Source: a virus
IMG/VR virus record: IMGVR_UViG_3300042307_001176
Coordinates: 64,001 to 128,000 of that record
Length of the DNA stretch: 64,000 nt
Direction: 5' to 3' (one strand)
The translations under genes and the position numbers were made by a program. How positions within the stretch are numbered: the first letter of the stretch is position 1; the number at the start of each line of letters is the position of its first letter. Positions 24,506 through 35,597 of this stretch are shown piece after piece. The notes below the pieces were generated by a model that had not been told where the DNA came from, ran no database searches, and saw only the letters and a program-made list of their open reading frames with translations.

Positions 24506-26152
24506 ATGTCAAGACTAGGCGAATTTGCTGACAAAAAAACAGCAATGCAAATTTTACAAAACTCCTCTTACGGAGCACTAGGAGTAGAGAACTTCATGGG
24601 TGGAACATCTTATTCTTTATCCCCACTGAACACATTAAAGATTGTTGCTGCGTCTTCAATCTTTGGAGAACCACAGTATTATAGAGATGGACTTGGATCA
24701 CCTAAAAATCTTAGTACAATTTTAGAGTATTCAATACTTTCACCGCTGTTCAAAAAAGAATCAGGAGAAGTTATAGACAATATGACTTCATTGGACATAT
24801 TTGAAATTGCCATACAAGCAGCTTTAGACTTTGACTTTAAAGCAACATTAGATTTGACATTAGAACTTCGTAACGAGTACTACATGCGTCTAAATCCTGC
24901 TGTAATATTCATGAAAGCGAGTATGCACGAAGGACGTCAGGAGTTCAACGAGAAAAATCCAGGTTACATGAAAAAGATAGGTAAATCTATTGCTCTACGT
25001 CCAGACGATTTGACCAACCAATTCGAATACTACATGTATAAGAATTCGTCTAAAAAAGGTCTTTCATCATTAGTGAAAAGAACTTGGGCAGAAAAACTTG
25101 CAGAATTCTCTCGTTACCAATTAAACAAATACAAAGGTAAAAGTCTAATTGATCTTGTTCGTATCTCGCATGCTAAGAGTGAAGATATTAACGAGCTAAT
25201 GACAACAGGAGGATTAAAAGTATCTGACGCAGAGAAAACTTGGGAGAATCTAAAATCAGAAGGAAAAAACTGGAGAGATATCACAGACACAATCTTGATT
25301 CCCCATATGGCTCTTTTAAGAAACCTTAGAGGTATTTTTACTGAGATCGAAGATCCTTCAACTACAGCAAGAATCTTAGCTCAATTAAAAGCTGGAGTTA
25401 TTAAAGGTAAACAATTTCCTTTCAGATATTGGTCAGCTTATAAAGCAGTATCAAATTCTCAAATACATCACAAACAACTTGTATTGGATACATTAGAAGA
25501 GTGTCTAGATATTTCAGTTGAGAACATGCCTAAATTAGGAGGTAAAACTGTGTGTCTTTCTGATAACTCAGGATCTGCATGGAGTGCTTTCAATAGCGAA
25601 TATGGATCAGTTACTGTTGCCGAAATTGCTAACTTGTCATCTTTGATCACTTCACTCCAATCTGATTCAGGGGAAGTTGGAGTATTTGGAGATAATCTTT
25701 CGTTAAAAGGAGTATCTAAAAGAAATGGGCTTCTTACACAATTGGAAGAGACATCAGAAAGAGGTAGAGCTCAAGGAGGTGGTACAGAAAATGGTATTTG
25801 GGTATTCTTTGATGATGCTATCAAAAAAGGAACACAATATGACAATATCTTCATCTACTCCGACATGCAAGCAGGACATGGTAATCTTTATGGACACAGA
25901 GAAACAGTAGGGAGAACTAATTTTGTTCATTCAACGAAAGGAGGGACATACATTGACGTACTTGCAATGGCTCAAGAATATAGAAACAAAGTTAACCCTA
26001 AAGTGAATTTATTCACTGTACAAGTTGGTGGTTATAATAACAGTGTTCTACCAGAATCATTATACAGAGGAGCAATTTTAGCTGGATGGACAGGTAAAGA
26101 GCCGGTTTTTGCTAAAGCAATTATAGATGCTTGGGATTCAGAAGAAGCATAA
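24506..26152 (+). CDS. rsr: Ro60/Rsr TROVE-domain RNA-binding protein with vWA domain
   Basis: ENFMGG, FGEPQYY, KYK...DLVRISH, TWE, MALLRNL, FPFRY, MIDAS DNSGS. Confidence 0.9.
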   Translation: MSRLGEFADKKTAMQILQNSSYGALGVENFMGGTSYSLSPLNTLKIVAASSIFGEPQYYRDGLGSPKNLSTILEYSILSPLFKKESGEVIDNMTSLDIFEIAIQAALDFDFKATLDLTLELRNEYYMRLNPAVIFMKASMHEGRQEFNEKNPGYMKKIGKSIALRPDDLTNQFEYYMYKNSSKKGLSSLVKRTWAEKLAEFSRYQLNKYKGKSLIDLVRISHAKSEDINELMTTGGLKVSDAEKTWENLKSEGKNWRDITDTILIPHMALLRNLRGIFTEIEDPSTTARILAQLKAGVIKGKQFPFRYWSAYKAVSNSQIHHKQLVLDTLEECLDISVENMPKLGGKTVCLSDNSGSAWSAFNSEYGSVTVAEIANLSSLITSLQSDSGEVGVFGDNLSLKGVSKRNGLLTQLEETSERGRAQGGGTENGIWVFFDDAIKKGTQYDNIFIYSDMQAGHGNLYGHRETVGRTNFVHSTKGGTYIDVLAMAQEYRNKVNPKVNLFTVQVGGYNNSVLPESLYRGAILAGWTGKEPVFAKAIIDAWDSEEA

Positions 26153-27383: not shown

Positions 27384-27443
27384 ATGAACAAAACAATTAA
27401 CATATTACCTATATCATTAAGACCGTCGTCAAGACGATCCTAA
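27384..27443 (+). CDS. leader peptide 1 (MNKTINILPISLRPSSRRS) of the tRNA operon 1 attenuator
   Basis: Follows TATATTTG (27340); 3' part is ATA/TCN/AGA/CCN codons matching the downstream tRNAs. Confidence 0.8.
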   Translation: MNKTINILPISLRPSSRRS

Positions 27444-27524
27444 AGGTCCTATGTTAATAAAAAATAATCATTAACTAAACCGGGACCTTTAAAAGTCTCG
27501 GTTTTTTTTTGTGTTCTTTGACAT
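27441..27524 (+). promoter_or_regulatory. attenuator 1: antiterminator, terminator and boxA
   Basis: taaaggtcct (27441-50) pairs with gggaccttta (27482-91); terminator aaaccgggac/gtctcggttt plus T run; GTTCTTTGACAT at 27513-24. Confidence 0.8.
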
Positions 27525-28106: not shown

Positions 28107-28167
28107 CTAAATTTTAAAGTCTTTAGGAGAACAAAAGTTCATGCTGGTTCAGATCCAACCTCTTGTA
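28107..28167 (+). pseudogene. decayed class II tRNA 3' remnant, probably Leu(TAA)
   Basis: ctaaa/tttag stem with a TTAA-containing loop, variable arm gaac-aaaa-gttc, T-arm-like gctgg-ttcagat-ccaac, discriminator A; no D arm. Confidence 0.4.
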
Positions 28168-28189
28168 TTTTTTGGATATATAATAAATC

Positions 28190-28561
28190 ATGAATGATCA
28201 TATTAGAATATCCGGACTCGGTATAGAAATATACAAAAATGATATACCAGGAGTGAGATGGAATAAAGCTCAGACTTTTGCAGAATTTCTTAAAGATGGG
28301 TGGAGGTTGCCTACATTAAAAGAACTTGCTTTAATAAAAACACTAAGGGATGTTGGAGGCATAGGAAGATTTCCTGCGGAATATTCGGATTTTTCTGATT
28401 CATATTATTGGAGCGGAAAAGAAGGAGAAGCTGCCACTCTAAGAACTCAATTAAAAGACGGAAGTAGTAGTTATGCTTATTACTTTGATGTGGCTAAAGG
28501 AATTTCTTCACATAGTAAAAAAGCATACGATCTTAGGGTTAGGTTTGTCAGAGATATATAA
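28190..28561 (+). CDS. DUF1566 (Lcl C-terminal)-like domain protein
   Basis: W..A...GWRLPT.KEL...YYWS...RVRFVR. Confidence 0.75.
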   Translation: MNDHIRISGLGIEIYKNDIPGVRWNKAQTFAEFLKDGWRLPTLKELALIKTLRDVGGIGRFPAEYSDFSDSYYWSGKEGEAATLRTQLKDGSSSYAYYFDVAKGISSHSKKAYDLRVRFVRDI

Positions 28562-28564
28562 TGT

Positions 28565-29416
28565 ATGGCAACAACAAGACCTTTTTCGTATAATCCAACG
28601 CAATCAACAATTGCTGGAACTACTAATTTAGGTACCATATGTATAGGAGTATCTGATTTAGACTATGCTGCTAGCCCTGGAGGATTAACGTGGTGGATGG
28701 GACCGGATGAAGATAATTCTTATGTAGTATGCAAGGATGTACCAGCTCAAAATTTCCCTACTCCGTTAGGAAATATAGGCAATGTACAATTTTGGAGATG
28801 CACTAATACAGATTTAGCATTTAGAGATATGGTATCTACAATAAGTGGTACTACACAAGCATCGGCTTCAGCAGCTAGTGATTGGTTAGCATCTAATAAC
28901 TATTGGACTAACAGAAATCCATATCTTGCAGGTCTATATAAAACAACTTACTCTGGATATTTCGCAGATTCAGTTAGTTTCTTTGCAACTGCAACTCCTC
29001 AAGCATTTGGAACAAACCCAGCTACTTCTGTACAAACTACTGCAATATCAGAAGCAGCTAGTGGTGATGGTGATTATTTTAGTTGTCAATGGTTGGGTTA
29101 TTTCAGTCCGACTACTACTCAAACTTATACATTTTACACCAACTCGGATGATGCATCTTATGTGTGGGTTGGAGCAAATGCGATATCTGGATTTACTACA
29201 GCAAACGCAACAGTCAATAATGGAGGTGCTCATGGTCCTATAGAGGCATCAGGTTCTATAGATCTAACTGCAGGAGTTTATTATCCTATAAGAATTCAAT
29301 TCGGTGAAGCCGGCGGAGGTGATGTACTTACTTTCAATTATTCAACACCAACGATAGCAAAAACAACTAATGTAACAGGATTAGTTTTCTATAATACATC
29401 AACTAACGGATTCTAA
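28565..29416 (+). CDS. putative virion fibre/decoration protein with PA14 domain
   Basis: W.GYF.P...YTFYTNSDDASYVW...YYPIRIQFGE.GGG. Confidence 0.75.
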   Translation: MATTRPFSYNPTQSTIAGTTNLGTICIGVSDLDYAASPGGLTWWMGPDEDNSYVVCKDVPAQNFPTPLGNIGNVQFWRCTNTDLAFRDMVSTISGTTQASASAASDWLASNNYWTNRNPYLAGLYKTTYSGYFADSVSFFATATPQAFGTNPATSVQTTAISEAASGDGDYFSCQWLGYFSPTTTQTYTFYTNSDDASYVWVGANAISGFTTANATVNNGGAHGPIEASGSIDLTAGVYYPIRIQFGEAGGGDVLTFNYSTPTIAKTTNVTGLVFYNTSTNGF

Positions 29417-29421
29417 AACAT

Positions 29422-30198
29422 ATGGCAACAACAAGAGCATTTTCATATAATCCAACACAATCAACAATTGCGGGAACTACGAATGTGGGTACTCTATGTA
29501 TAGGTGTATCTCCTTTAGCATATAGTACTAACCCTGGTGGATTAACCTGGTGGATGGGACCAGACGAAGATAATTCTTACGTGATAGCTAAGGATGTATC
29601 AGCTGGAAATTTTCCCACTCCTGTAGGGAACGTAGGTAATGTACAATTTTGGAGATGCACTAATACGGATTTAGCATTTAAAGATTTAGTATCTATAATA
29701 AGTGGTACTGCACAAGCATCGGCTTCAGCAGCTAAATCATGGCTAACAACAAATAATTATTGGACTAATTATACCAGTGGTGTAACTTTCTCTCGCCCTT
29801 TCGTTAATGGTATTGCACCAGGAGCTACCACAGAAACTGCTTGGAATACATTCAGAGCAGCATTAACGGGATCTTATACACAATTTGTTATATCAAATTC
29901 ATTAGGATTTAGTCTAACCGTAAGCCATGCTACTTCGGTCCAAACTTTGGCAGATGCTTTAAAAAATGCAACAAGCAATACCTCAGTAACTATAAACAGC
30001 GTAGTTTGGAGAGTGGGAACAGCTTGTGGAACTCCTTCTATTGGTGGAGTTGCTGTTGAATTTTCTAATGTAGGAAGCTGTACTGGATCAAGTACTATAG
30101 CATTTAGACCTATGATTAATAACTTAAACTGGGGAGGTATGGGTACAGGGTCTACTGTAAGCCAGGCTTCTCAAACAATGACACTAACATTTAGCTAA
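29422..30198 (+). CDS. paralog of 28565: shared N-terminal ~115 aa, different C-terminal domain
   Basis: Near-identical MATTR.FSYNPTQSTIAGTTN...NNYWTN N-terminus. Confidence 0.75.
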   Translation: MATTRAFSYNPTQSTIAGTTNVGTLCIGVSPLAYSTNPGGLTWWMGPDEDNSYVIAKDVSAGNFPTPVGNVGNVQFWRCTNTDLAFKDLVSIISGTAQASASAAKSWLTTNNYWTNYTSGVTFSRPFVNGIAPGATTETAWNTFRAALTGSYTQFVISNSLGFSLTVSHATSVQTLADALKNATSNTSVTINSVVWRVGTACGTPSIGGVAVEFSNVGSCTGSSTIAFRPMINNLNWGGMGTGSTVSQASQTMTLTFS

Positions 30199-30361: not shown

Positions 30362-30494
30362 AGATATATAAGTAATGAAAACATTTAAAGATTTTATTTA
30401 CGAAAAAATTAATGAAGACACATTATCGTATAGGGGATTAGTTTTCTATAATACATCAACTAACGGATTTTAAAACATATGGCAACAACAAGAG
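30362..30494 (+). repeat. chimeric duplication scar
   Basis: 30362-30440 identical to 30630-30708; 30435-30494 matches 29378-29437; junction microhomology GGATTA. Confidence 0.85.
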
Positions 30495-31633: not shown

Positions 31634-31723
31634 ATGAAACACTTTTTAAATATCGCAACAGATTTTCAACTTCGTAAAGAGGATGACCTTCTAGAGGATA
31701 GATTTAAGTGTCAGAGGAAATAA
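31634..31723 (+). CDS. leader peptide 2 (MKHFLNIATDFQLRKEDDLLEDRFKCQRK) of the tRNA operon 2 attenuator
   Basis: Follows TACATTTG (31594); EDDLLED run matches the downstream Glu, Asp and Leu(TAG) tRNAs. Confidence 0.8.
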   Translation: MKHFLNIATDFQLRKEDDLLEDRFKCQRK

Positions 31724-31794
31724 ATTTATATAATGATATAATTTAAACCTCTGATAACCTCAGAGGTTTTTTTGTTTTATACGCTCTTTGAAAT
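31711..31794 (+). promoter_or_regulatory. attenuator 2: antiterminator, terminator and boxA
   Basis: tcagagg (31711-17) complementary to cctctga; terminator aaacctctga/tcagaggttt plus T run (31745-31773); GCTCTTTGAAAT at 31783-94. Confidence 0.8.
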
Positions 31795-32040: not shown

Positions 32041-32121
32041 GCCCAGGTGGTGAAATGGTATACACGCTAGTCTTAGAAATTAGTGACGTAAGTCGTGAGG
32101 GTTCGAGTCCCTCCCTAGGTA
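32041..32121 (+). tRNA. tRNA-Leu(TAG)
   Basis: ctagt-cttagaa-attag; long variable arm. Confidence 0.92.
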
Positions 32122-32123
32122 CT

Positions 32124-32693
32124 ATGAAAATTATATTTTTAGATCATGACGGTGTAATTTGTCTTTCCCAACAATTTGGAGGACGTTACAAAAAGCAGGC
32201 TAAAGCTAGAAAAAAGCTTTCTCAGGATCTGATGACTTTTCCTGTTGGAGCTAGGTTTGATAATTTTGATAAGAAAGCAATAAAGGTTTTAAATACAATC
32301 TTAGAAGAAACAGGAGCTGAAATAGTGGTTTCTTCAGATTGGAAAAACTGGGCAACTGTAGAAGAAATGGGTGAATACTATAAAGAGCAAGGAATTATTA
32401 AAACTCCTATAGATTTCACTCCTAGAGAATACACGTTACCAGAGAAACAAGAATGGCATCCAGATTGGGATTTAGAAGCATCAAGAACTTTAGAAATCCA
32501 AGAATGGTTGAAAGATCATCCAGAAGTCTCTCATTGGGTAGCAATAGATGATTTGGATATGAGTTTTAAAGAAGTATCTTCTAATAGAAGCGGTACCGGA
32601 TGGGGATTAATAAATTTCGTACACACTCCAAGCCTTAATGAAGGTATTAAAAAATGTGGAATTAAAGAAAAAGTTTTAAAATTTTTAAAATAA
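32124..32693 (+). CDS. HAD-superfamily phosphatase (HAD_SAK_2, RNA-repair-associated type)
   Basis: IIFLDHDGV, IVVSSDW, EI..WL...WVAIDD; start is the ATG right after tRNA-Leu. Confidence 0.8.
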   Translation: MKIIFLDHDGVICLSQQFGGRYKKQAKARKKLSQDLMTFPVGARFDNFDKKAIKVLNTILEETGAEIVVSSDWKNWATVEEMGEYYKEQGIIKTPIDFTPREYTLPEKQEWHPDWDLEASRTLEIQEWLKDHPEVSHWVAIDDLDMSFKEVSSNRSGTGWGLINFVHTPSLNEGIKKCGIKEKVLKFLK

Positions 32694-33168: not shown

Positions 33169-33254
33169 AAAATATCAAAAAACATCTTTTTATTCAAAAA
33201 AGATATTGTACTTTTGCGAAACTATTCTGGAAACAGGATATATAATTAAGAAAA

Positions 33255-33362
33255 ATGAAAAACTGTAGTAAACATAACATCAATCGCATGATCAGTCAGA
33301 TTAATGGCTGCTATCAAACGGTGGCGTTTTGGGCAAAGGGGAAAGAACCCGATCGAAGCTAA
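33255..33362 (+). CDS. leader peptide 3 (MKNCSKHNINRMISQINGCYQTVAFWAKGKEPDRS) of the tRNA operon 3 attenuator
   Basis: Follows TACTTTTG (33209); first 30 codons use exactly the 16 amino acids of the 16 downstream tRNAs. Confidence 0.85.
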   Translation: MKNCSKHNINRMISQINGCYQTVAFWAKGKEPDRS

Positions 33363-33436
33363 TACAGGAAATCATATTTAGATATTTTGGAAAAGGCTTT
33401 GATTCACATCAAAGCCTTTTTTTTGTTCTTTGACAT
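33351..33436 (+). promoter_or_regulatory. attenuator 3: antiterminator, terminator and boxA
   Basis: gatcgaagct (33351-60) pairs with ggctttgatt (33395-404); terminator aaaaggctttgat/atcaaagcctttt plus T run; GTTCTTTGACAT at 33425-36. Confidence 0.8.
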
Positions 33437-33448
33437 ACTGGAAAAAAT

Positions 33449-33521
33449 GGTACCGTAGCTCAGTCGGTAGAGCACTAGACTGAAAATCTAGGTGTCGCCG
33501 GTTCGATTCCGGCCGGTACCA
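33449..33521 (+). tRNA. tRNA-Phe(GAA)
   Basis: ctaga-ctgaaaa-tctag. Confidence 0.95.
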
Positions 33522-33531
33522 CAATTAAAAT

Positions 33532-33604
33532 GATCTCGTAGCTCAGCTGGTAGAGCACCGCACTTTTAATGCGGGAGTCGAGGGTTCGAGCCCCTCCGGG
33601 ATCA
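33532..33604 (+). tRNA. tRNA-Lys(TTT)
   Basis: ccgca-cttttaa-tgcgg. Confidence 0.95.
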
Positions 33605-33610
33605 CTACAC

Positions 33611-33683
33611 ACATCAGTAGCTCAATTGGTAGAGTGTTGGTCTCCAAAACCAAAGGTTGTAGGTTCGATTCCTACCTGGTGTG
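33611..33683 (+). tRNA. tRNA-Trp(CCA)
   Basis: ttggt-ctccaaa-accaa. Confidence 0.95.
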
Positions 33684-33689
33684 CTAAAA

Positions 33690-33762
33690 GGCTCTGTAGT
33701 TCAAGGGATTAGAATGGATCACTACGGATGATCTGATCCTGGTTCGAATCCAGGTGGAGTCT
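33690..33762 (+). tRNA. tRNA-Arg(ACG)
   Basis: gatca-ctacgga-tgatc. Confidence 0.92.
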
Positions 33763-33773
33763 CAAACAAATAG

Positions 33774-33844
33774 GGTCGTGTGGTCGAGTGGTTAGGCACT
33801 AGTCTGCAAAACTAGTTATACTGGTTCAATTCCAGTCACGACCT
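33774..33844 (+). tRNA. tRNA-Cys(GCA)
   Basis: ctagt-ctgcaaa-actag; U73. Confidence 0.95.
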
Positions 33845-33861
33845 CAAAAAAATTTAAAAAT

Positions 33862-33999
33862 ATGATGATAGAAAGTAAAATAGTAGCCAGAGGAAGTTTC
33901 CCCTCAAGCAGAGAAAACTTAAGAAGAGAAACATTAAAATTTAATAGAGCCAAAATATTGATCGGAAGAATTAAAAGACTAATTAACAAAGGAAAGTAA
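33862..33999 (+). CDS. small basic ORF inside tRNA operon 3
   Basis: 45 aa MMIESKIVARGSFPSSRENLRRETLKFNRAKILIGRIKRLINKGK; stop overlaps the 5' end of tRNA-Ser. Confidence 0.4.
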   Translation: MMIESKIVARGSFPSSRENLRRETLKFNRAKILIGRIKRLINKGK

Positions 34000-34076
34000 T
34001 CTCAGATGGTGACGGGGCTCGCCTGCTAAGCGAAGCGTACCTTAATTGGTATTTGGTTCGATTCCAATTCTTTCCG
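33991..34076 (+). tRNA. tRNA-Ser(GCT)
   Basis: tcgc-ctgctaa-gcga; long variable arm; G73. Confidence 0.85.
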
Positions 34077-34082
34077 CAACAT

Positions 34083-34159
34083 TGACATATAGCTCAGTTG
34101 GTTAGAGCGTTGATCTGATACGTCAAAGGCCGAAGGTTCGAATCCTTCTATGTCAACCA
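34083..34159 (+). tRNA. tRNA-Ile(GAT)
   Basis: ttgat-ctgatac-gtcaa; encoded CCA. Confidence 0.92.
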
Positions 34160-34164
34160 CATTT

Positions 34165-34237
34165 AGTCTCTTAGCTCAGTTGGCAGAGCGTTTGGTTTAC
34201 ATCCAAAATGTCGGGGGTTCGAATCCCTCAGGGACTA
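34165..34237 (+). tRNA. tRNA-Val(TAC)
   Basis: tttgg-tttacat-ccaaa. Confidence 0.93.
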
Positions 34238-34239
34238 CA

Positions 34240-34321
34240 AGATTAGAAGCGGCGAATGGGGTTACTTCTCAGAACTTTTAAATTTGACCAAAAAACACCT
34301 CGCTCAAATATTCTCTAATCT
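34240..34321 (+). ncRNA. Y-RNA-like structured RNA, copy 4, within tRNA operon 3
   Basis: agattaga/tctaatct; GAAGCGG; GGGGTTACTTC; AACAC; AATATTCTC, same architecture as the 24042-24436 copies. Confidence 0.7.
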
Positions 34322-34326
34322 AAACT

Positions 34327-34398
34327 GGGGATGTAGCTCAGCGGTAGAGCTCTCGACTGTTAATCGATAGGTCGCTGGTTCGAATCCAGCCTTCCCCG
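34327..34398 (+). tRNA. tRNA-Asn(GTT)
   Basis: tcga-ctgttaa-tcga. Confidence 0.93.
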
Positions 34399-34403
34399 CA
34401 ATT

Positions 34404-34485
34404 CGGAGTGTTGAGCAATTGGCTGCTCAGCTGACTGTAAATCAGCCGCCTTAAGGCATTGGGGGTTCGAATCCCTCCGCTCCGA
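34404..34485 (+). tRNA. tRNA-Tyr(GTA)
   Basis: gctga-ctgtaaa-tcagc; long variable arm. Confidence 0.92.
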
Positions 34486-34505
34486 CACAGTGTATCTGTA
34501 AGATA

Positions 34506-34558
34506 TAGAGACGGACAGTCCGACGGTTGAAGTGGATGCGTAATTCCACACGTCTCTA
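34506..34558 (+). ncRNA. unidentified small structured element
   Basis: tagagacg/cgtctcta closing stem with internal gtgga/tccac hairpin. Confidence 0.35.
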
Positions 34559-34561
34559 AAT

Positions 34562-34637
34562 GCGATAGTAGCTCAGTTGGTAGAGCACCGTCCTTCCAAG
34601 TCGGGGGTCGCAGGTTCGAATCCTGTCTATCGCTCCA
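34562..34637 (+). tRNA. tRNA-Gly(TCC)
   Basis: cttccaa loop; U73 and CCA. Confidence 0.93.
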
Positions 34638-34638
34638 C

Positions 34639-34711
34639 GGGGTAGTAGCTCAATTGGCTGAGCGCTTCCTTTGCAAGGAAGAGGATGTGGGTTCAAGTCC
34701 CATCTACTCCA
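34639..34711 (+). tRNA. tRNA-Ala(TGC)
   Basis: cttcc-tttgcaa-ggaag; G3:U70. Confidence 0.95.
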
Positions 34712-34718
34712 CTTATAT

Positions 34719-34791
34719 GGCGAGTTAGCTCAGTTGGTAGAGCGTTGGAATCATACCCCAAAGGTCGGCAGTTCGAACCTGCCACTCGCTA
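34719..34791 (+). tRNA. elongator tRNA-Met(CAT)
   Basis: GGCGAGT acceptor; atcatac loop. Confidence 0.85.
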
Positions 34792-34793
34792 CT

Positions 34794-34870
34794 GTGACGG
34801 TAGCTCAGTTGGTTAGAGCGTCTGATTGTGGTTCAGAAGGTCGGGGGTTCGATTCCCCTCTGTCACCCCA
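34794..34870 (+). tRNA. tRNA-His(GTG)
   Basis: tctga-ttgtggt-tcaga; C73 and CCA. Confidence 0.93.
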
Positions 34871-34871
34871 T

Positions 34872-34944
34872 GCCTTTGTAGCTCAGTTGGTAGAGCACTT
34901 CACTTGTAATGAAGATGTCGCAGGTTCAATCCCTGTCAAAGGCT
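34872..34944 (+). tRNA. tRNA-Thr(TGT)
   Basis: cttca-cttgtaa-tgaag. Confidence 0.95.
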
Positions 34945-34950
34945 CTAAAT

Positions 34951-35023
34951 TGTCCTGTGGTGTAATTGGCAACACGTCTGGTTTTGGACCAGAAGAGTCC
35001 AGGTTCGAGCCCTGGCGGGACAT
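34951..35023 (+). tRNA. tRNA-Gln(TTG)
   Basis: tctgg-ttttgga-ccaga; U1-A72. Confidence 0.93.
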
Positions 35024-35070
35024 CTAAAAAATAAGATAAATAGATTGACCAGTGTGTAAAAAATGTAGTT

Positions 35071-35559
35071 ATGAAAGTGCTAGTTCTAAATAATGACTTT
35101 ACTCCTATAAGTGTTACCGACTTTGCTCGTGGATTTAAGCTTGTGTATAAAGGTAAAGCAGAAGTTTTAGAGCACGATGAACAAAATCCAATTGTTACTG
35201 AACAAAGCACTTACAAAAGACCTTCTGTTATCAGACTTTTAAAATATGTTGTATTGCCTTTTAAGAAGTTAAAACCGACTAGGGAAAATATCTTTAGAAG
35301 AGATGGGATGAAATGTGTTTATTGTGATACTACTAAGAACCTAACAATAGATCACGTTCTACCTAGATCTAGAGGTGGAGTTAATACATGGGAGAATCTA
35401 ACAACATGTTGTTCAAAATGTAACAATAAAAAAGATGACAGGACTCCAGAAGAAGCTGGAATGAGAATGAGACAGAAACCATTCAAGCCAGGATACGGAT
35501 ATTTTATACGCAATTTCGCAAAAGGATTGGAGGTATGGACAGCATATCTCCCTGATTAA
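35071..35559 (+). CDS. HNH endonuclease
   Basis: VLVLN...PSVIRL...RD...CVYC...TIDHVLPRSRGG..TWEN...C..CN..K. Confidence 0.9.
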   Translation: MKVLVLNNDFTPISVTDFARGFKLVYKGKAEVLEHDEQNPIVTEQSTYKRPSVIRLLKYVVLPFKKLKPTRENIFRRDGMKCVYCDTTKNLTIDHVLPRSRGGVNTWENLTTCCSKCNNKKDDRTPEEAGMRMRQKPFKPGYGYFIRNFAKGLEVWTAYLPD

Positions 35560-35566
35560 AAATTAA

Positions 35567-35597
35567 CCCCGGATTTATCAATAATCTGGGGCTTTTT
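35567..35597 (+). terminator. intrinsic terminator
   Basis: ccccggatt...aatctgggg plus T run. Confidence 0.7.

Follow-up and report, generated by a model that had tools for sequence, protein, structure and literature searches.

The IMG/VR virus record IMGVR_UViG_3300042307_001176 comprises 154 kb with about 33% G+C and is about 66% complete according to CheckV. All 24 tRNA genes called in it fall into three clusters on the + strand, and all three lie inside the window, by which we mean the whole stretch of 64,000 nucleotides analysed here. The clusters have one layout in common, in which a short leader ORF, a terminator and a boxA-like motif precede the tRNA genes (Table 1). Sister unit 1 is followed by the tRNAs Ser-TGA, Arg-TCT, Pro, Ile-TAT and Met, and sister unit 2, whose leader ORF contains an EDDLLED run, by Glu, Asp, Met and Leu-TAG. 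For the third cluster ARAGORN and Rfam at default settings call Phe, Lys, Trp, Arg-ACG, Cys, Ile-GAT, Val, Asn, Tyr, Gly-TCC, Ala, Met, His, Thr and Gln. The original prediction, made from the sequence before the present analysis, spoke of a 16-tRNA operon; 15 of these tRNAs stand at default settings, whereas the sixteenth, Ser-GCT (33990-34076), is found by ARAGORN only at relaxed settings and by Rfam as a sub-gathering match to the tRNA clan (38.3 bits, E 2e-6). The D arm of this tRNA is weak and the molecule may be impaired; in a relative (L169), a canonical Ser-GCT occupies the equivalent position.

Table 1. The third tRNA unit and its two sister units (positions are those of the window)
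Feature	Positions	Strand	Remarks
Candidate Bacteroidota-type -7 promoter box TACTTTTG	33209-33216	+	38 nt 5' of the leader ATG
Leader ORF 3	33255-33362	+	ATG start, 35 codons plus TAA
Sensor codons 1-30	33255-33344	+	amino acids restricted to the 16 whose tRNAs follow
Antiterminator 5' strand GATCGAAGCT	33351-33360	+	codons 33-35 and the T that opens the stop codon
Intrinsic terminator	33389-33431	+	15-bp stem and T-run; independently called; hairpin -16.3 kcal/mol
boxA-like element GTTCTTTGACAT	33425-33436	+	12-mer; tRNA-Phe 13 nt further on
tRNA cluster 3	33449-35024	+	15 default calls; in addition tRNA-Ser(GCT), below threshold
Sister unit 1	27384-27524	+	leader ORF 27384-27443, terminator 27477-27504, boxA 27513-27524
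Sister unit 2	31634-31794	+	leader ORF 31634-31723, terminator 31745-31769, boxA-like motif 31783-31794

Within cluster 3, tRNA-Cys is followed by a 45-codon ORF (33862-33999) that reaches into the 5' end of the sub-threshold tRNA-Ser(GCT), and spacers are present at 34239-34326 and 34487-34561. An HNH endonuclease gene (35071-35559) follows directly 3' of the cluster and is itself followed by a terminator (35567-35591). The gene at 32055-32693, which begins within the 3' end of the tRNA-Leu of cluster 2, encodes a protein whose HAD domain is that of the "Swiss Army Knife" RNA-repair proteins (E 6e-23). A 548-aa protein with a TROVE (Ro60-like) domain (Pfam E 8e-10) is encoded at 24506-26152, and just 5' of its gene an earlier reading of the sequence had placed putative Y-RNA-like repeats. 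Two tandem paralogous proteins are encoded at 28565-30198; the first of them, the only one scanned, contains GLEYA/PA14 carbohydrate-binding-type domains, and a short N-terminal segment recurs at 30375 and 30643. In the relatives L003 (504-588), L029 and L351, a tRNA-Leu(TAA) stands 3' of the Met tRNA of cluster 1; the corresponding segment of the window (28108-28190) is non-homologous and has no such tRNA, and two TTA codons are still found in leader 1.

The amino acids encoded by codons 1-30 of leader 3 are exactly M, K, N, C, S, H, I, R, Q, G, Y, T, V, A, F and W, as had been claimed. L, E, D and P, whose tRNAs belong to clusters 1 and 2, are missing from these codons, and the E, P and D of the leader are confined to codons 31-33. 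The correspondence to "exactly 16" tRNAs depends on the sub-threshold tRNA-Ser. The choice of codons shows the same tendency, as 28 of the 29 codons from 2 to 30 are readable by the anticodons of the operon. Serine is encoded by AGT, twice (AGY accounts for 27% of the Ser codons of the phage), arginine by CGC (0.9% of Arg codons phage-wide, versus 78% for AGA), and isoleucine by ATC/ATT (ATA accounts for 46% of the Ile codons of the phage); the codon choices proposed for Ser, Arg and Ile are correct. More generally, the leader codons AGT, CGC, ATC/ATT, ACG, GTG and GCG fit the anticodons GCT, ACG, GAT, TGT, TAC and TGC. The one exception is GGC, also foreseen as such, which Gly-UCC cannot read under standard wobble and which is kept in homologs.

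This composition is improbable under the codon usage of the phage, the background against which the original prediction was to be judged. Simulations based on 37,312 codons from long ORFs give a probability of 2.6e-4 for zero out-of-set residues in codons 2-30, of 5.6e-4 for the occurrence of all 15 non-Met residues, and of about 2e-6 for the two jointly. Without the post hoc cut, i.e. for the whole 34 codons with at most three out-of-set residues and full coverage, the probability is 1.7e-4. Given the peptide, synonymous choices of which at least 28 out of 29 are decodable by the operon have a probability of 5.8e-4. Among the 1378 ATG-started open stretches of 30 codons in the six frames of the 154-kb genome, leader 3 is the only one that combines the absence of out-of-set residues with full coverage. 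The amino acids of the own cluster make up 0.54, 0.43 and 1.00 of leaders 1, 2 and 3, respectively, versus a background of 0.245, 0.231 and 0.751, and the three leaders of this one genome split the amino acids the way their three operons do.

Between the leader ORF and the tRNA genes stands the intrinsic terminator, with its 5' arm at 33389-33403, its loop at 33404-33407 and its 3' arm at 33408-33422. The segment GATCGAAGCT, which had been proposed to overlap the stop codon and to pair with the 5' arm of the terminator, indeed pairs with positions 33395-33404 over 10 bp (3 of them G.U), and it is a near copy of the 3' arm of the terminator. The antiterminator duplex of leader 3 has an energy of -11.0 kcal/mol, versus -5.9 for shuffles. 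Folded without the 3' arm, the RNA adopts a minimum free energy structure in which GATCGAAGCT is paired to 33395-33404 in the 5' arm; in the full-length fold the terminator prevails, as its hairpin is more stable than the antiterminator, and hence any regulation must be kinetic, as in classical attenuators. In five homologs GATCGAAGCT is conserved and the pairing is kept, as judged by eye, unequal loop lengths misaligning the 3' arm in the alignment; in addition, the stem of the terminator shows a T>C change compensated by A>G in the relative L003. The sequences of leaders 1 and 2 are unrelated, yet in both a segment at or next to the stop codon complements the 5' arm of their own terminator. 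Thus, two attributes of leader-peptide attenuators, an intrinsic terminator between the ORF and the genes and a mutually exclusive antiterminator, are found here.

The 12-mer GTTCTTTGACAT has only three copies in the 154-kb genome, one before each tRNA cluster, and among the matches listed it is found in many IMG/VR contigs before tRNA clusters or between tRNAs. In an rrn operon of Chitinophagaceae (Bacteroidota), an identical 12-mer is found in the stretch that separates the spacer tRNAs from the 23S gene, i.e. in the position of the spacer boxA, and we read the phage element as a host-type rrn boxA. The alternative that it belongs to a second promoter was rejected, since the 14-26 nt from the T-run to the first tRNA leave no space for one and contain no fitting -7 box. 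The likeness to the boxA of rrn operons and to Nus antitermination resides in this identity of sequence, and the difference in its placement downstream of the regulated terminator. As it lies 3' of that terminator, the boxA cannot suppress it, and presumably it makes the polymerase processive through the structured tRNA array.

Upstream of the leader, TACTTTTG fits TAHHTTTG, the Bacteroidota -7 consensus (PMC6847099), and such a box sits 32-38 nt upstream of each of the three leaders in the window. The motif TAHHTTTG occurs at chance level across the window (62 found versus 64 expected), so that the assignment of this putative promoter depends solely on position; sigma-70 promoters are likewise at chance level (33 versus 33.4). 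Among the matches listed, about half of the units elsewhere have no exact -7 box upstream. Another box of the -7 type, TAAATTTG (34279-34286), is located within cluster 3, 40 nt 5' of tRNA-Asn. It is a possible internal promoter, and if it acts as one, the last nine tRNAs may not depend on leader 3 alone. The region upstream of the leader ATG is A-rich and resembles start sites of Bacteroidota that lack a Shine-Dalgarno (SD) sequence: in 57 units among the matches listed, A reaches 61-68% at positions -3, -6, -12 and -13, and 86% at -1, and A at these positions is reported to determine SD-less initiation in Flavobacterium johnsoniae (PMC6847099). Leader 3 is, therefore, a short 5' ORF with a credible start, as expected of the leader of an attenuator.

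Two pattern scans of IMG/VR yielded at least 70 units composed of a terminator and a boxA, at least 59 of them distinct, with leaders of 26 families; for matching leaders to tRNA sets, the operons were extended across inserted ORFs. Such insertions, ORFs of 100-230 aa located between the boxA and the first tRNA or between tRNAs, are present in L029, L044, L107 and L152/L350, and look like mobile insertions. In 55 of the 59 distinct units, among the matches listed, an ATG-started ORF of 19-45 codons ends 10-40 nt before the terminator, while shuffled sequences contain 4.8 such ORFs (maximum 13). This bears on the possibility that leader 3 is a chance ORF, in which case the hairpin would simply terminate a small RNA or the gene 5' of it, and transcription of the tRNAs would start from a promoter of their own. 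It is true that the -7 box is not enriched and that AT-rich DNA has many short ORFs, but the frequency of the ORFs in these units, the composition of leader 3 (P about 2e-6), the lack of any promoter-like or -7 box in the 14-26 nt from the T-run to the first tRNA, and the replication of the rule in unrelated families make this explanation extremely improbable.

The correspondence between leaders and operons extends to the whole collection. In the 26 families, among the matches listed, the fraction of leader residues with a tRNA in the own operon is 0.59, versus 0.43 after permutation (z 8.7), and it rises to 0.63 versus 0.43 (z 9.6) when the last five codons are trimmed; none of 200,000 permutations of leaders and operons reached the observed match. 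Among the matches listed, z is still 7.7 for a conservative choice of 17 units whose tRNA sets are dissimilar, and 6.9 for the 14 families unrelated to the window. When codons are compared with anticodons, z is 9.4-9.9 in the frame of the ORF and -0.5 to -1.5 in the other two frames, a result that rules out base composition as an explanation and speaks for decoding by the ribosome. The Ile codons follow the Ile anticodon (ATY with GAT, ATA with TAT; Fisher test, 4e-4), and the tests for the Leu, Ser and Arg boxes point in the expected direction, individually without significance (p 0.07-0.15). Across the families, the region of the stop codon pairs with the 5' arm of the terminator at -11.2 versus -3.3 kcal/mol (Wilcoxon test, 4e-6). 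Regulatory codons cognate to what the operon supplies, another attribute of attenuators, are therefore found both in the window and in the cross-family tests. One of the clearest examples among the small operons is that of L044 at 6155, where a leader in which Gln, Pro and His abound stands before a cluster made up solely of tRNAs for Pro, His and Gln.

On average across the 26 families, among the matches listed, the enrichment of cognate residues within the leaders begins at about codon 5 and extends to the eighth codon before the stop (codon -8; 0.62-0.77 versus about 0.42), no enrichment is seen at codons 2-3 or in the last seven codons, and at codons -4 and -5 cognate residues are depleted (0.19-0.27 versus 0.40-0.44). 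In most families the antiterminator strand spans -23 to +9 nt around the stop codon. The profile is as the attenuation model predicts: stalled no more than about 20 nt from the stop, a ribosome would mask this strand and bring about termination. The out-of-set Glu, Pro and Asp of leader 3 fall exactly within this stretch. The cut at codon 30 thus has a mechanistic basis, as the match covers only the codons at which a stalled ribosome would leave the antiterminator free.

The comparison with related genomes, from which the original prediction expected leaders to change along with their operons, gave a match that is strong without being exact. On the one hand, the match tracks the operons across families, and several homologs of leader 3 conform to it. 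In L003, in which a neighbouring protein is 75% identical, the two leader substitutions are both inside the 16-residue set; in L169 the leader differs at about nine positions, and its first 28 codons specify the same 16 amino acids before the same 16 tRNAs; and in L152/L350, whose 14-tRNA operon has no tRNA-Tyr, the Tyr of the leader is replaced by Phe. None of the substitutions in the sensor part across the homologs brings in Leu, Glu, Asp or Pro. On the other hand, L152/L350 keep three Ile codons with no Ile-GAT tRNA found, and have an Arg-ACG tRNA with no Arg codon in the sensor part, and L214/L351 combine a near-identical leader with an operon of only 7 tRNAs, a shortfall that looks like a recent deletion. 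These two cases break the one-to-one correspondence, and the match should therefore be regarded as a strong statistical rule rather than an exact code.

The closest relatives at the protein level are uncultured huge phages and crAss/Lak phages. A blastn search of the leader against GenBank phages returned only chance matches; Flavobacterium phage MaF61, considered as a cultured relative, was rejected, as its match lies inside a CDS. Bacterial contigs provided none of these units among 120 matches listed, mostly matches to CDSs. The exact motif of a T-run followed by boxA is present in 13 of 401 sampled Bacteroidota genomes, in none of them with tRNAs within 1.5 kb, and some of the 13 cases look like rrn leaders.

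Judging from these sequence features, we think it likely that leader 3 is a transcription attenuator of the ribosome-mediated (leader-peptide) type with the 16-tRNA cluster under its control, and that the phage probably makes the tRNAs of cluster 3 only when ribosomes run short of them. Transcription would start upstream of leader 3, at the putative promoter, and the 35-codon ORF would be translated. An undelayed ribosome would reach the stop codon and cover GATCGAAGCT, the hairpin at 33389-33422 would form, and transcription would end at the T-run. If an aminoacyl-tRNA were scarce, the ribosome would stall at any of about 25 upstream codons and leave GATCGAAGCT free, and the latter would pair with the 5' arm of the terminator as soon as that arm is made. 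RNA polymerase would then read through, acquire the boxA signal and transcribe the tRNAs as part of what we infer to be a single transcription unit, so that the output (tRNA) would relieve its own input (slow decoding). Such a competition between two structures would be decided kinetically, and kinetic regulation would require coupling of transcription and translation in the hosts. Since the sensor codons cover 16 tRNA species, mostly with the matching isoacceptor codons, the leader would act as one multiplexed sensor of demand. That inference of the original prediction now has computational support: the anatomy of the unit, the improbable composition of the leader, and the conservation of the codon-tRNA match and its replication in other families are all results of computation.

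A related explanation keeps the attenuator and gives up the species-by-species sensing: the leader could report the overall speed or availability of ribosomes, as a sensor of general translation capacity or coupling, the codon match resulting from weak selection or a shared codon bias and most single codons being without influence on regulation by themselves. The leader has only one to three codons for each tRNA, well short of the runs of classical leaders, L214/L351 retain the full leader despite their reduced operon, and the regulation must be kinetic, all of which would suit a general sensor. Nonetheless, we consider it unlikely, as the three leaders of one genome partition the amino acids like their operons, cognate codons are avoided over the antiterminator, and the match across the 26 families, among the matches listed, is specific to the operon and restricted to the frame of the ORF, which shared composition cannot explain.

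The leader RNA might bind tRNAs by codon-anticodon pairing without a ribosome, in the manner of T-boxes, which also switch between terminator and antiterminator, and the genes downstream are indeed tRNAs. However, the signal is made up of about 25 in-frame triplets, which open with an ATG in a Bacteroidota-type start context and run to a stop codon located 19-34 nt 5' of the terminator; T-boxes read only one specifier codon; and a search of the whole window with Rfam at the gathering threshold retrieved only tRNA families, with no match to the T-box or any other known leader family; we regard this reading as highly improbable. Alternatively, the leader might encode a small protein, or release an attenuator RNA, that acts in trans and is served by the composition. 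Trans-acting leader peptides and attenuator RNAs are known, the trpL peptide and RNA of Sinorhizobium being reported examples (PMC7298713, PMC6614838). Yet the leaders differ greatly between families, each tracking its own operon, and contain no conserved peptide motif beyond the first two or three residues, which makes a trans-acting role very improbable as well.

Returning to the attenuator that senses individual tRNAs, we propose a broader scenario to which we give even chances. Bacteroidota phages may run a self-referential tRNA homeostat, in which each operon is switched on by slow decoding of the codons that its own tRNAs read, with up to 16 species per leader. Stalling reports the loss of usable tRNA from any cause, and therefore the same device could also act as a counter-defence sensor that replaces host tRNAs depleted or cleaved in the course of infection. 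In this context, genes of a Ro60-like protein and of an RNA-repair-type HAD protein adjoin the tRNA clusters of the phage, and the overlap of the HAD protein gene with the tRNA-Leu of cluster 2 indicates that RNA-repair functions adjoin tRNA operons.

These considerations bear on the reasons for which phages have tRNA genes, and on the regulation of these genes. If the proposed mechanism is true, at least one large phage group does not supply its tRNAs constitutively but provides each species when it is needed, and the ideas of "codon-usage compensation" and of "replacement of depleted host tRNAs" become directly testable. Leader-peptide attenuation would come to include, besides enzymes, the RNAs that do the decoding; the number of sensed amino acids would rise from the present one to three up to sixteen; and the SD-less translation of Bacteroidota would be added to its range. 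In addition, tRNA genes would for the first time be both the output of an attenuator and its sensed input. As compact natural reporters, the leaders could also reveal how much of an individual tRNA is available.

To our knowledge, all described leader-peptide attenuators control genes of amino-acid biosynthesis or of synthetases, while the genes downstream of leader 3 are tRNAs; in the literature, searched in full text, we found no account of leader-peptide or attenuator control of tRNA genes or operons, either in phages or in bacteria. The pheST operon of E. coli, in which attenuation at the pheM leader controls an aminoacyl-tRNA synthetase, resembles the phage unit in that leader-peptide attenuation acts on part of the machinery that decodes the sensed amino acid. 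It differs in that a synthetase is controlled there, in response to a single amino acid, and tRNA genes are controlled here. The T-box shares with the phage unit the principle that the status of tRNA selects between a terminator and an antiterminator before translation-related genes, but it binds one tRNA directly, without an ORF and without a ribosome. The multivalent attenuators of enterobacteria, namely the thr leader for Thr and Ile and the ilvGMEDA and ilvBN leaders for Ile, Leu and Val (for the general theory of leader-peptide attenuators see PMC1183508), have in common with the phage unit a short translated leader with regulatory codons, the sensing of more than one amino acid, and a terminator that competes with an antiterminator masked by the ribosome at the end of the ORF. 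In contrast to them, the phage unit would control tRNAs rather than biosynthetic enzymes, sense up to 16 species with one to three codons each and without runs, match the isoacceptor codons, and place an rrn-type boxA after the terminator, and it is encoded by a phage, apparently of a Bacteroidota host with SD-less initiation.
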